DNA of 63,280 nucleotides from an uncultured Candidatus Saccharibacteria bacterium (GCA_964421995.1 CAYQYW010000006.1:1-63280); one strand, 5' to 3'. Counted from the first letter of the stretch, positions 11,892 through 17,000 are shown. The notes: generated by a model not told the origin, from the sequence alone. A program made the numbers and translations.

Positions 11892-12196
11892 AGCTTTCAA
11901 AAAACAATGTTCAAATATAATTACATACAGCTTAAATAAGTGCATTCTTATTTACGATTTTCAAATTTCCTAACAGGAAACGACGAATTAGTACTCCTCA
12001 GCTTAATGTGTCGCCACACTTCTACTTAGAGCCTATCAACCTAGTCGTCTCCTAGGGGTCTTAATGATATCTAATCTTGAGGTTGGCTTCCCGCTTATAT
12101 GCTTTCAGCGGTTATCCATTCCCAACTTAGCTACTCAGCAATGCCACTGGCGTGACAGCTGATACACCAGAGGTCAGTTCACTCCGGTCCTCTCGT

Positions 12197-12987
12197 CATG
12201 TTATTCCCTTGTTTCCAAGAGCACAGACTATATCTTCACCCTTCTTGCATGAATTCAAGTGTCGGGTGATGGCGTGTTACCTACAGGTTTTGTCTTATAT
12301 ACATAAGATTCAAAAGTCTGTAAGTCTGTCTTACTACTGGTGTGTAGTAAGAACAAGTCGTTACGGGGTCAAACCCAAACGTAGATGTAACTCTTCTTTA
12401 TTGAGTGTATTGTTGTTTGAATAATTTTCACCTTTTATAATGAACATCAAATCAACAATCTTGCGTATTTGTTTTTCAGTCATATTTTTCATTGGTGTAT
12501 CAATTAAGATATCACCTGCTTCAATCAATGCTTTTGTTTGCACTTTTTTGAAGCGAATGAATGGTTTCATTAATACAAGAATATCTCGTACTTGTTTAAA
12601 CCCATTAATACGTAGCTCAGATATACCATCATTTCTTTGTGTGATATACCCAATACCAAAAACATTACGCATCCAATAAAGAGGTTCCTCATGTCGAGAA
12701 TCTTGATATAGGCAGATTGTTGTCATAAAACGAAATCCACGTTTTGTGTCATTTCGTTTCTTTATTTGCAACATCAAACTACCATCACCATCAAGAAATC
12801 CCGCTATATATGCTACATCTGTTTTAGATCGACTTCCCACGGTATTACCTTAAAGAGGTTGCGGTCCTCAAGCGAATCATATCATACTTGGACCAGTCAT
12901 GATACATTCTAAAACCGAAACTTATGAAGGCTTCACCGTTATAGCCATCTTGTCATCATAGATTCCTCTATGAAGTAGCAATCTCTT
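12197..12987 (-). mobile_element. Group I intron 1 (791 nt), carries the LAGLIDADG ORF, inserted in the sarcin-ricin loop
   Basis: Exon continuity is ...GCTCCTAGT | intron | ACGAGAGGACCGGAGTG. The 5' exon ends in U and the intron ends in G. The core motif GGGTGAAGATATAGTCT (revcomp of 12225-12241) matches the conserved group I J8/7-P7 element AAGAUAUAGUC. Confidence 0.85.
12361..12840 (-). CDS. Single-motif LAGLIDADG homing endonuclease (I-CreI-like size)
   Basis: 159 aa with a GTG start in the track. It has one LAGLIDADG motif (VAYIAGFLDGDGSL) and lies entirely inside intron 1. Its first codons overlap an intron block that is also present in the ORF-less intron 2. Confidence 0.85.
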   Translation of the reverse strand: MGSRSKTDVAYIAGFLDGDGSLMLQIKKRNDTKRGFRFMTTICLYQDSRHEEPLYWMRNVFGIGYITQRNDGISELRINGFKQVRDILVLMKPFIRFKKVQTKALIEAGDILIDTPMKNMTEKQIRKIVDLMFIIKGENYSNNNTLNKEELHLRLGLTP

Positions 12988-13143
12988 ACTAGGAGCAAAT
13001 CCTCTCAAATATCAACGCCCACTGCGGATAGAGAACCAACCTGTCTCACGACGGTTTAAACCCAGCTCGCGTACCTTTTTAATTGGCGAACAGCCAAACC
13101 CTTGGGACCTTCTCCAGCCCCAGGATAAGGTGAGCCGACATCG

Positions 13144-13502
13144 CTATCGACTACACACGAACCATTTACTACTGCTATTACTAGCAGGATCGGACTATAT
13201 CTTCATCCTGTGTGTCTGAAACACAGGAGATCGGCGTGTTAGCTCCATCACCTTTCAGTGCTATGGAACTCCGGCATGTTACATGCCAAGTCTCTACGGG
13301 GTCATAACTCATACTGTATTACTAATCAGACTTCTGAAAATGAGTTAGACTTCCCACGGTATTGTCCACTACGTGAATCATCATTCATCAATATGAATAA
13401 TGGGCATACGTATATGGAGTTCACCGTTATAAGCCAACTTGTTTTTGTAGAAGATTACTCTTCTAGGCACCCCGATGTCTTTAGGTGTAAACTAAATAGT
13501 TA
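13144..13502 (-). mobile_element. Group I intron 2 (359 nt, no ORF), inserted in the peptidyl-transferase centre
   Basis: Exon continuity is GGCACCT | intron | CGATGTCGGCTCACC. The boundaries show exon U and intron G. An internal guide GGGUGCC (revcomp of 13466-13472) can pair with the last 7 exon nt GGCACCU, giving the U-G wobble at the splice site. The core reads GGATGAAGATATAGTCC (13192-13208). Confidence 0.85.
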
Positions 13503-13743
13503 AGGTGCCGAACACCGCCGTCGCTATGGACGCTTGGGCGGTACCAGCCTGTTATCCCCAGGGTAGCTTTTATCCGTTAATTTCCGGCCGCATCTAATGC
13601 GTACCGGAAGTTCACTATGCTCTGCTTTCGCATCTGCTCGACATGTCCGTCTTGCAGTTAAGCTCTCTTATGCCATTACACTATCGGTACGGTTTCCATT
13701 CGCACCTAGAGAACCTTAATAGACTCCTCCGTTACTCTTTAGG

Positions 13744-14054
13744 CATTTATGTTACTCAATGTATCAGATCGAGCTCCTCAATTTTGAGGACTCTATGTCG
13801 CCATAGAGATCGGACTATATCTTCATCCTATTACTAGGATGTTCCGCGTGTAGTCTCTGAGGGGTCATGTATTAAAAATAATTTAACACAGCGGACTTCC
13901 CTGCTGATTGTCTGCACCTGAAGCATTTTCACTGACATTTCTGTCGAGTAGCTCAGGATTCTCAGATATTCCAGCATATAGCGAAATGTTCACACTATAC
14001 TTACGTACAGTGGTCCCCATTTATAATTTTGATCAACACGAAGAAGTTGATCGG
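13744..14054 (-). mobile_element. Group I intron 3 (311 nt, no ORF), inserted just 3' of the P-loop
   Basis: Exon continuity is GGGGCG...GCGCCT | intron | CCTAAAGAGTAACGGAGG, with exon U and intron G. The core reads GGATGAAGATATAGTCC (13812-13828). P4/P6-like blocks CAATCAGCAGGGAA and CTATATGCTGGAA are present. Confidence 0.8.
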
Positions 14055-14394
14055 AGGCGCATTCAAGGATAGCGCCCCACTAAAACTGCCTGCCATGCAC
14101 TGTTCCAGCCCGTTTTTGCCGTTCTGGTTAGAGACTATAATTTAAAAGAATGGTATTTCACTGACGACTCCATGTAAACCGAAATCTACACTTCAAAGTC
14201 TCCCATCTATTCTACGCAGTCAAATCATAGACCCAATACAAAGCTACAGTAAAGCTCCTGGGGTCTTTCTGTCCTGCAGCGGGTAAGCGGCATCTTTACC
14301 GCTATTGCATTTTCACCGAGCAAATCCTCGAGACAGTTCCCCAGTCGTTACGCCATTCGTGCACGTCTAAAATTACTAGACAAGGAATTTCGCT

Positions 14395-14847
14395 CAAACC
14401 TTCCTTCACGGTTCGGACCATCTCTTCACCCTTATCACTATTATGATCTAGGGGCATGACGTATGGCCTCTGAGGATTTCAAAAACTGTGATTTCTTTTT
14501 TCGATTCATTTTCTCAATCTTAGATGCTATTGCTCTAAGACCAGATTCTGAAAGATGTTCTTTAGAATGAATCATCTCTACGATTTCAGAGAAAATCTGA
14601 AAAGCATCCATTTCCGTCGGTAAAACCGACAATCCACATCACCATTTTTGATCTTTCCTGCTGATTGCCCATACTTTCTAAGGAATAATTATACCATAGT
14701 TATATAGGTTTCCAGCATATAGTCATGTATTTTAGGATCAACTATGTATTACTACATAGCGAGGCAGCTTTTAACGTTTTATGTTCTGTTTATTTACGAC
14801 TATAATCAGTCCCAATCCTTCAGGAAATTAATTAATTAACTTCCTGA
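14395..14847 (-). mobile_element. Group I intron 4 (453 nt) at the classical L1931 site, with a decayed endonuclease ORF
   Basis: Exon continuity is GGCCGTAACTATAACGGTCCTAAGGT | intron | AGCGAAATTCCTTGT, with exon U and intron G. The core variant is GGGTGAAGAGATGGTCC (14415-14431). It shares CAATCAGCAGGAAA and CTATATGCTGGAAA blocks with intron 3. Confidence 0.8.
14441..14632 (-). pseudogene. Remnant (C-terminal about 60 codons) of a LAGLIDADG homing endonuclease
   Basis: The 63-aa ORF contains ...FSEIVEMIHSKEHLSESGLRAIASKIEKMNRKKK. This matches the KEHLT-x-EGL-x-KI-x-x-IK-x-x-MN tail typical of LAGLIDADG endonucleases. No LAGLIDADG catalytic motif is left. Confidence 0.5.
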
Positions 14848-17000
14848 ACCTTAGGACCGTTATAGTTACGGCCGACATTCACCCGGGCATATATAGCCCA
14901 GCATAACTCTCCGAAGAGAATTACACCATCCATATTTAACCTTCGGGCATTGGTCAGGCGTCACCCCCTATACATCCTCTTACGAGTTCGCAGGGAGCTG
15001 TGTTTTTAATAAACAGTCGCCAGGGATCTTTCACTGCGGCTCATCTTTACGATGAGCAGGCCTTATCGCTAACTTACGGCCGCTGTTTTGCCGAGTTCCT
15101 TGAGGATCGTTCACTCGTTCGCCTTAGTCTTCTCGACTCTACCACCTGTGTTGGTTTGCGGTACGGATTCAATACACCTAACCTTAGAAGTTTTTCTTGG
15201 AAGGCTCTTCATAAGAATTTTCTTTGCCCGAAGGCTCCAAATCTCCCCGGCCTCCGACACTTGTGTTTCCCGGATTTTCCTAAGAAACATATCTTGAGAC
15301 AAGCGACACAAATCCAATAATGTGCTCTTACTTATTTCCTCCGTCACTCCATCGAAATGTATTGAAGTTATGGAATATTAACCATATGTCCATCGTGTGC
15401 GGCTTTCGCCATCCACTTAGGACCGACTAACCCTTGGCTGATTATCATCGCCAAGGAAACCTTGGTATTTCGGCGGGAGGGGATCTCACCCTCCTTGCGG
15501 TTACTCGTGCCGGCATTCTCACTTCCATACGCTCCAGTGTGGGTCACCCCTTCACCTTCATCGCGAATGGAACGCTCTCCTACCGCTCTATACATACAAA
15601 TATCTATAGAGCCCTCAGTTTCGGTACTATGCTTTAGCCCCGATTATTTGCGGCGCAAAATCTCTTGATCAGTGAGCTGTTACGCTATCTTTAAAAGATG
15701 GCTGCTTCTAAGCCAACTTCCTGATTGTCAGAAAAATTTTACATCCTTAAGTGCACTTAGCATAGATTTTGGGACCTTAACTTGAGATCTGGGCTGTTTC
15801 CCTTTCGTCCACAGGAGCTTAGCCCCCTGAGACTAACTGCCAGACTATTAACTTTTGGTATTCGGAGTTTGATTGGGAAGACGAGATTTCTCCCTATTCT
15901 TACCATCCAGTGCTCTACCCCCAAAAGGAACATCTGACGCCAACCCTAAAGCTGTTTCGGAGAGAACCAGCTATTACTAGGTTCGATTAGCTTTTCACTC
16001 CCTACCACAGGTCATCCGATAGCATTAAACGACTAACCGGTTCGGGCCTCCTCTTGTCTTTCGACAAGACTCACCCTGCCCATGGCAAGCTCACCTAGTT
16101 TCGGGTCTTATACATACTACAAACGCGCTATTCACACTCGGTTTCCCTACGGCTCCACTCGAAATGAGTTTAGCCACGCAGCACACATAAACTCGCCGGC
16201 TCATTCTTCAATAGGCACGCCATGACGGATGCAAGCATCCGCTCTGACTCCTTGTAAGCATATGGTTTCAGAACTATTTCACTGCCCTCACCGGGCTACT
16301 TTTCACCTTTCCCTCACGGTACTTGTTCACTATCGGTCTCTAAGAGTATTTAGCCTTACCGGTTAGTTCCGGTAGATTCACCCAAGCTATTCGTGTCTTG
16401 GGCTACTCAAGAATAACGACAAAAAAGATAGATTGTTTTCGTGTACAGGACTATTACCCTCTGTGGTGTAGCTTTCCAACTACTTCTACTAACAATATAT
16501 TTTATAACTTTTCTCACATTGAAATGTGACACCGTCATCTTACAACCCCCCATAAAATAAATCATGAGGTTTGGGCTACTTCCATTTCGCTCGCCGCTAC
16601 TAAGGAAATTCCTAAAACTTCCATATCCATACGTGGAAATATCCACCCATGGATATAGAAGTTCTGTTGGTCTCTGTTCCTCCAGGTACTTAGATGTTTC
16701 AGTTCCCTGGGTTCGCGTAATACAAACTTAACATCTGTAAAACAATTAAGGTTTACTTAATTAGGTTTCCCCATTCGGAGATCTCCGGGTCAAAGATTGC
16801 TAGACATCTTACCGGAGCTTATCGCAGTCATGCCACGTCCTTCATCGCCTCTTAGAGCCAAGGCATCCACCATATGCTCTTAAACTTCCTGTTAGGAAAT
16901 TTAAAAACCGCACATTACGTTTTTACTAAAACGTAATCAAAAAATAAAAATGCAATTACCCATTGCTGTATGTAATTGTCAATGAACTCGTGTAAAGAAT

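Follow-up and report, generated by a model that had tools for sequence, protein, structure and literature searches.

Four putative group I introns, one with an intact endonuclease gene, in the 23S ribosomal RNA gene of a Paceibacteria-like bacterium

Introduction

Large insertions are common in the 23S ribosomal RNA (rRNA) genes of bacteria of the candidate phyla radiation (CPR). In a survey of 348 CPR 23S genes, 82% had insertions of at least 100 bp; 968 insertions were found in 284 genes, with up to 16 in a single gene, and 45% of the insertions were group I introns by Rfam, which were concentrated in the 3' half of the gene at recurrent sites (Tsurumaki et al. 2024, PMC11270868). Here we analysed a stretch of 63,280 nucleotides (the window; CAYQYW010000006.1:1-63280, catalogued under an uncultured Candidatus Saccharibacteria bacterium), the minus strand of which carries a 23S rRNA gene interrupted by four insertions. 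We describe the positions of the insertions, their ribozyme folds, the seamless restoration of the exons, the state of the open reading frames (ORFs) that the insertions contain and the lineage of the host.

The same survey reported that LAGLIDADG_1 genes are enriched at E. coli positions 1917, 1931, 1952, 2593, 2604 and 2657, and that I-ShaI, a CPR enzyme from Ca. Shapirobacteria encoded at L1931, cuts its site and dimerises (PMC11270868). According to its authors, group I introns at the sites 23IS9, 10, 11, 13 and 14 were previously unreported in other bacteria (PMC11270868). Brown et al. (2015), as cited in that paper, described CPR rRNA insertions as removed from transcripts. Among other bacteria, three introns interrupt the 23S gene of Synechococcus sp. 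C9, and one or two that of Thermotoga, Simkania, Coxiella and Thermosynechococcus (Haugen et al. 2007, PMC1995217). In the following, insertion sites are written as L with four digits, the E. coli (Ec) position after which the insertion occurs (L1931), and the compared loci as L with three digits (L008).

Results

The minus strand of window positions 11900-17000 was aligned pairwise to E. coli rrlH (L001 60-2963) with a cheap gap extension. Homology extended over window positions 16882 to 11987, equivalent to Ec 12 to 2884, and was broken by four large insertions. The Rfam model LSU_rRNA_bacteria matched 12992-16890 on the minus strand with 1954 bits; the match stops at 12992 because the long insertion of intron 4 comes next. 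The two analyses place the 23S gene at 11972-16890 (minus strand), with five exons and four introns. Its 3' end is approximate: the Rfam model begins at 16890, and the 3' strand of helix 1 ends near 11975.

Intron 1 (14395-14847, 453 nt) is inserted after Ec1931, intron 2 (13744-14065, 322 nt) after Ec2262, intron 3 (13144-13502, 359 nt) after Ec2500 and intron 4 (12197-12987, 791 nt) after Ec2656, all on the minus strand. The corresponding sites are L1931 at the junction of helices 69 and 71 (H69-H71), L2262 beside the P-loop, L2500 in the loop of the peptidyl transferase centre and L2656 in the sarcin-ricin loop. All four thus lie in functional centres of the ribosome, as had been noticed in the first-pass annotation (a model's reading of the sequence), and this placement is explained by the fact that homing endonucleases target invariant sequence.

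At each of the four insertions, with the boundary of intron 2 placed as explained below, the upstream exon ends in U and the intron ends in G. The junctions produced by in-silico splicing align without gaps to L008 and L012, two relatives that are intron-less at these sites. Around L2262, the spliced window and L008 differ at one of 50 positions, and the other junctions show substitutions in the flanks only. Excision of the introns therefore restores the sequence found in relatives that are intron-less at those sites. The spliced 23S sequence is about 3.0 kb long and is 79.8% identical to the 23S gene of L008.

Most of the geometry drawn in the first-pass annotation was retained. Its E. coli positions (1931, ~2262, 2500 and 2656) were all right by the rrlH alignment; its rule of a terminal exon U and a terminal intron G holds at every insertion, and the 3.03 kb or so that it expected after removal of the introns agrees with the spliced length. 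The gene itself, which it had drawn at 11962-16905, is also real, with ends about 10-15 nt too generous. Three of its four pairs of insertion coordinates were exact; the 5' end of intron 2 was wrong, being 14065 and not 14054.

A start of intron 2 at 14054 (311 nt) was rejected, as it would leave the 11-nt sequence UGAAUGCGCCU in the mature rRNA beside the P-loop hairpin. L008, which is intron-less at L2262, reads GCGCTATCCT and CCTAAAGAG on the two sides of the junction, with no extra 11 nt between them. The homologous L2262 introns of L010, L091 and L096 likewise begin directly after the exon end TCCT. Therefore, intron 2 extends from 14065 to 13744 and is 322 nt long. A GCGCCUC element at window positions 14049-14057 (minus strand) is conserved near the 5' end of the L2262 introns of the window, L010 and L091. 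It resembles ligated exon sequence and is complementary to GGCGC in the exon, which forms the 3' strand of hairpin H80 (the P-loop hairpin). This mimicry accounts for the 11-nt error in the earlier boundary. The element could represent an extended exon-binding sequence or an alternative pairing.

The insertions were searched with the Rfam group I intron model RF00028, whose gathering threshold is 50 bits, using permissive filters. Significant matches were obtained on all four insertions, and two of them exceeded the threshold: intron 2 gave the best score of the four (85.5 bits, E=1e-21, 13791-14035), and intron 3 scored 66.3 bits (E=6e-16, 13171-13484). Exactly four copies of the J8/7-P7 core motif GAAGAKATRGTCY are present in the 63-kb window, always on the minus strand and once in each insertion, as the first-pass annotation had also recorded for this core. 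The chance expectation is about 0.01, and four copies were never seen in 100 shuffles. With a G+C content of 0.36-0.41, the introns match the contig.

Intron 1 can be folded into P2, P2.1 and P3-P9, with P7 formed by GGCCA/UGGUC and the variant GAAGAGA in J8/7; a 175-nt insert sits in P6. Direct reading of its homologues revealed compensatory changes. P3 is CAUGAC/GUCAUG in intron 1 and UCUGAC/GUCAGA in homologues, a comparison confined to four full-size homologues, and P7 is GACUA/UAGUC or UACCA/UGGUA in the homologues compared (L085, L091 and L092). The ORF-less L1931 intron of L085, which is homologous to intron 1, reaches the RF00028 threshold with 50.4 bits. Intron 2 folds into P2-P9.1. 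Introns 3 and 4 possess P7.1/P7.2, and each has the other as its nearest paralogue (z=7.1). They are IA-like, and we assert no finer subgroup.

The fold of intron 4 was tested by covariation. Scanning of the metagenome with its endonuclease gave three loci, and further L2656 introns were found on the contigs of the protein homologues. Ten homologous L2656 introns were gathered through the encoded protein, the ORF interiors were removed, and the sequences were aligned with intron 4 (alignment A1, 11 sequences). A hand-drawn structure comprising P1, P2, P3, P4, P5, P6, the P7 pseudoknot, P7.1, P7.2, P8 and P9 was scored in A1. Standard pairs filled 86.5% of the cells, compared with 38-42% when the 3' partners were slid. 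Changes on both sides were found in 42 of the 82 pairs, and the observed covariation score was reached by none of 500 shuffles. P2, P3, P7.1, P7.2, P8 and P9 covary, while P4, P6 and P7 vary little or not at all.

Internal guide sequences of introns 3 and 4 were identified by inspection. In intron 3, the guide (13466-13479, minus strand, read directly) provides both P1, formed by GGGUGCC and the 5' exon GGCACCU with a U·G pair at the splice site, and P10, formed by GACAUCG and the 3' exon CGAUGUC. L087 has the exon GCUACCU and the guide GGGUAG, a compensatory change relative to intron 3. In intron 4, the guide UUGCUA (12976-12981, minus strand) pairs with the exon UAGU and the intron AA. All six pairs are standard, and U·G occupies the splice site, in all of the 11 homologues. 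Taken together, the RF00028 matches, the covariation of intron 4 and the score of the intron 1 homologue in L085 support the assignment of all four insertions as group I introns, the interpretation proposed in the first-pass annotation.

The four introns differ in their coding content. Intron 4 contains an intact gene for a single-motif LAGLIDADG homing endonuclease (12361-12840, minus strand) with a GTG start codon and 159 amino acids (aa). The product matches Pfam LAGLIDADG_1 (1.7e-10, 42.1 bits against a cut-off of 23.1). The ORF fills the P6 loop. It extends from P4' to J6/7, which contains the stop codon; therefore, both of its ends also encode the ribozyme core. The protein has 2694 database homologues. 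Most of the top 120 have its length of 159 aa, and the best are mostly 159-162 aa long and 60-89% identical; the named ones are records of Ca. Pacebacteria, Paceibacterota and Kaiserbacteria. This family of about 159 aa sits at the same L2656 site in other CPR 23S genes. In the PDB, the protein matches I-CreI, I-MsoI and I-CvuI with E=1e-9 to 1e-23. Its AGFLDGDGS segment aligns to LAGFVDGDGS of I-CreI, and the acidic residue of GDG is conserved. On these grounds, the L2656 endonuclease is predicted to be an intact, homodimer-type member of the I-CreI family.

In the P6 loop of intron 1, tblastn located the remnant of a LAGLIDADG_1 endonuclease (14457-14666, minus strand). What is left of it is the N-terminal ~23 aa, including the motif (IVGFTDGNGCFS), and ~36-50 aa of the C-terminus; an internal deletion has removed about 97 residues, and the pieces lie in frames +2/+3/+2. 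The remnant is closest to the intact endonuclease encoded at L1931 in L091 (E=6e-7 as a tblastn query) and to the characterised I-ShaI (E=1e-6). A 63-aa ORF of intron 1 had no Pfam match. In introns 2 and 3, a tblastn search with the LAGLIDADG_2 proteins of homologous L2262 and L2500 introns revealed no ORF trace beyond core sequence. Short LAGLIDADG_2 matches in intron 3 coincide with the ribozyme core (P4'-P6 and P6'-J6/7) and were rejected as an ORF remnant, because ORFs of this kind overlap the core. One intact gene, one remnant and two introns with no trace agree with the earlier description of endonucleases at different stages of decay. The intact, decayed and absent ORFs are successive stages of the usual cycle of gain, decay and loss of homing elements.

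The window is part of a 165-kb metagenome contig of the Joint Genome Institute. A gene for FtsW/RodA is located two genes downstream of the 5S rRNA gene, and its best matches (52-63% identity) are in metagenome-assembled genomes (MAGs) of Ca. Taylorbacteria, Ca. Paceibacter, Paceibacterota and Patescibacteria. The gene order 23S-5S-hypothetical-FtsW is common to the window and the MAGs nearest by FtsW, among which the intron sets vary. FtsW, synteny and the endonuclease homologues together indicate that the host is a Paceibacteria-like bacterium of the CPR (Patescibacteria).

Introns in the 23S genes of relatives were listed by mapping onto E. coli numbering. Loci L006-L012 were found by synteny and are unbiased, while L085-L098 were chosen for the L2656 endonuclease and form a biased sample. 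L008 and L012 have an intron at L2593 only, and the partial gene of L006 has L1931 and L2593. Five introns are present in L010 (Ca. Paceibacter sp.), at L1931, L2262, L2449, L2504 and L2593. L085 has L1931, L2500 and L2656; L087 has L2500 and L2656; L096 has L2262, L2593 and L2656; and L091 and L092 have four introns each, at L1931, L2262, L2593 and L2656. Every site used in the window recurs: L1931 in L006, L010, L085, L089, L091 and L092, L2262 in L010, L091, L092 and L096, L2500 in L085, L087 and L095, and L2656 in 10 loci. The combination of 1931, 2262, 2500 and 2656 without the very common L2593 was found in none of the other nine 23S genes that were mapped and were complete or almost so.

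The L1931 site of the relatives is variable. Short insertions of 193-256 nt were found in L010 (4010-4202), L006 (100-318) and L089 (4585-4840), none of which reaches the Rfam threshold. They keep a P1-like element, P2.x, P3, P7, P8 and P9 and end in G. The whole of P4-P6 is apparently gone, the 5' strand of P3 being followed almost at once by J6/7-P7. Their candidate guide is ACCU and not GCCU, so that U-A would replace the U·G wobble. These insertions may be degenerate ribozymes that are unable to splice alone. The full-size L1931 introns of L085 (3894-4272), L091 (2826-3858) and L092 (701-1451) end in A or U if the junction is kept between 1931 and 1932, unlike that of the window, which ends in G. 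In the L085 intron, the position aligned with the last G of the Rfam model lies 55 nt before the exon boundary.

Several further features of the window were recorded. Domain I of the 23S gene contains expansions of 52 nt (16611-16662) and 41 nt (16524-16564), after Ec 231 and Ec 278, respectively. Neither shows features of an intron; both are probably helix extensions specific to the lineage. A match to the cyclic di-GMP-II riboswitch model within a 23S exon (14143-14212) scored 24 bits, where the threshold is 53.5, and was discarded as a chance match. The 5S rRNA gene (11780-11887, minus strand; Rfam 5S_rRNA, 79.5 bits) is directly downstream of the 23S gene. The 16S gene (1-1451) is unlinked from the 23S-5S pair, being located about 10 kb downstream on the same strand. 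It covers model positions 1-1533 in 1451 nt, has no large insertion and is intron-free. In L010, the 16S gene is also interrupted, spanning about 2.6 kb (17999-20592) with an Rfam group I match at 18723-19874. The genes between 16S and 5S in the window (1452-11779) include those for an amino-acid kinase family protein, a glycosyltransferase, a sugar transferase and FtsW/RodA. An ORF of 1176 aa (20633-24163), located upstream of the genes for ribosomal proteins L10/L12, has no Pfam domain above threshold, with a sub-threshold peptidoglycan-binding match only.

Discussion

The introns of the window closely resemble the 23S group I introns described in the CPR. They share the host lineage, the recurrent sites in the 3' half, the single-motif LAGLIDADG genes of about 160 aa and the occurrence of several introns per gene. 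In the CPR introns, as in the window and its relatives, ORF-bearing and ORF-less versions exist at one site. There is no difference in kind, and 1931 and 2657 are among the hotspots named in the survey (PMC11270868). The locus had earlier been regarded as an unusually rich example, a view that does not hold given that relatives reach five introns and CPR genes up to 16 insertions (PMC11270868); the accompanying remark that rRNA insertions are known in the CPR was right, as they occur in 82% of the surveyed genes (PMC11270868). Four introns are above the average of the survey and well inside its range. The window contains a typical Paceibacteria 23S gene, with introns that are normal for the lineage and already surveyed in print. 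None of the papers found by a literature search on the names of sites (for example L2500, L2262 and L2449) was related.

The resemblance to introns outside the CPR is partial. The introns of Synechococcus sp. C9, S. lividus C1, Thermotoga, Simkania, Coxiella and Thermosynechococcus are located at L1917, L1931, L1951 and L2593, and their single-motif LAGLIDADG ORFs run into the ribozyme core, as does that of intron 4 (PMC1995217). However, no more than three introns occur in any of these 23S genes, every one of them has a full-length endonuclease gene, and none is at 2262, 2500 or 2656 (Haugen et al. 2007, PMC1995217). The predicted enzyme of intron 4 has in common with I-CreI, I-MsoI, I-CvuI and I-ShaI the single motif, the length of about 160 aa, the location in a group I intron of large-subunit rRNA and the acidic residue of GDG. 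Its predicted target is L2656 in the sarcin-ricin loop, whereas the targets are L2593 for I-CreI, I-MsoI and I-CvuI and L1931 for I-ShaI.

Based on these observations, the introns are very probably removed by guanosine-initiated, two-step transesterification, which would give a contiguous 23S rRNA of about 3.0 kb, and the L2656 endonuclease would confer mobility. The pre-rRNA would be transcribed with all four introns, each of which would fold into a group I core (P3-P9 with the P3/P7 pseudoknot). The internal guide would pair with the 5' exon, placing the terminal exon U in a wobble pair, and free guanosine bound in P7 would attack the 5' splice site. The terminal G of the intron would then take the G-binding site, and the freed 3'-OH of the exon would attack the 3' splice site. 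Joining of the exons would rebuild the H69-H71 junction, helix 81 beside the P-loop, the peptidyl-transferase loop and the sarcin-ricin loop. The L2656 endonuclease is expected to cut intron-less DNA of the sarcin-ricin loop, which reads GCTCCTAGT and ACGAGAGGACC on the two sides of the insertion point, around the palindromic GTAC at that point. Repair of the cut by recombination would spread the L2656 intron. The L1931 intron has lost its endonuclease by internal deletion and frameshifts.

Several points weigh against this scheme. We infer splicing in this organism, its autonomy and the activity of the endonuclease from sequence. Two of the introns score below the RF00028 threshold: intron 1 with 30.5 bits (E=3e-5) and intron 4 with 26 bits (E=7e-4, 3' half only). 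The low score of intron 4 is explained by its 480-nt ORF, which splits the core so that only the 3' half aligns. P1 of intron 2 (UCCU/GGGA) has only 4 bp and competes with the conserved GCGCCUC. P1 of intron 1 is ambiguous, as there are two candidate guides, UUGGG following the 5' hairpin and GCCU some 85 nt further downstream, both of which give U·G. In our reading of the guides, no obvious P10 pairing was found for introns 1, 2 and 4. Moreover, the sequence is a metagenome assembly in which two sister-sample contigs break near the 23S gene, and a chimeric join across conserved exons, though unlikely, is conceivable.

The main residual uncertainty is the autonomy of every intron, and intron 1 is the weakest in this respect. 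One or more introns, most plausibly intron 1 and perhaps intron 2, might not be self-sufficient and might need a protein helper, one candidate for which would be the single intact LAGLIDADG protein, acting as a maturase. The low score, variant J8/7, ambiguous P1 and decayed ORF of intron 1 and the weak P1 of intron 2 favour this idea. LAGLIDADG maturases are established in organelles, as is generally known and is mentioned in PMC11270868. The L1931 elements of relatives are even more reduced, lacking P4-P6, so that degenerate ribozymes are apparently tolerated in the lineage. However, all of the core helices, a P7 with its bulged nucleotide and the terminal G are present in each of the four window introns, and intron 2 has the highest Rfam score among them. 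No maturase role is known for homodimeric endonucleases of the I-CreI type, which also counts against such a helper. We therefore regard dependence on a protein as unlikely.

A bolder proposal is that the four ribozymes act as obligatory checkpoints for the folding or assembly of domains IV-VI, with the LAGLIDADG protein as a maturase shared by the introns whose ORF is missing or decayed. Roughly half of the usual ribosome-biogenesis factors are present in CPR bacteria (PMC12641178). If the checkpoint proposal were true, the four introns would not be purely selfish passengers, but we consider it very improbable.

It is also hardly credible that the insertions are intervening sequences (IVS) that are excised without exon ligation in the manner of RNase III, or are retained, leaving a fragmented or expanded 23S rRNA. 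Like the window insertions as interpreted here, RNase III-processed IVS are extra sequences in a bacterial 23S gene that are absent from the mature rRNA; fragmenting IVS are common in bacterial 23S genes and probably occur also in the CPR (PMC11270868). However, IVS occur in helices 9, 25 or 45 as plain stem-loops and yield fragmented rRNA, whereas the insertions at 1931, 2262, 2500 and 2656 carry group I ribozyme cores and no simple terminal stem. The U and G rule is obeyed at the exon ends and the exons rejoin seamlessly, and a break or a retained insert in the sarcin-ricin loop, the peptidyl-transferase loop or helix 81 should be incompatible with function.

It is equally hard to accept that the four introns belong to a chimeric assembly or to a dead copy of the rRNA gene, and not to the working 23S gene of one organism: although the contig is metagenomic and the region is hard to assemble, since two sister-sample contigs end shortly after the upstream MscS-like gene, the 165-kb contig agrees with several independent MAGs in its 23S-5S-hypothetical-FtsW gene order, conservation extends without interruption over the full length of the exons, the G+C content of the introns matches that of the contig, and a single rRNA copy is usual in CPR genomes (PMC11270868).

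Self-splicing of four group I introns thus remains the preferred interpretation of the gene. For annotation, the locus illustrates that standard rRNA callers truncate such a gene, the Rfam match ending at 12992 before the last intron and exon, and that gene callers may list the endonuclease of intron 4 as an ordinary protein. The knowledge of bacterial rRNA introns is unchanged by this locus. It adds one documented combination of sites, including introns at L2262, L2500 and L2656 that are typical of the CPR, and it captures, within a single gene, the intact, decayed and absent stages in the life cycle of the endonuclease.

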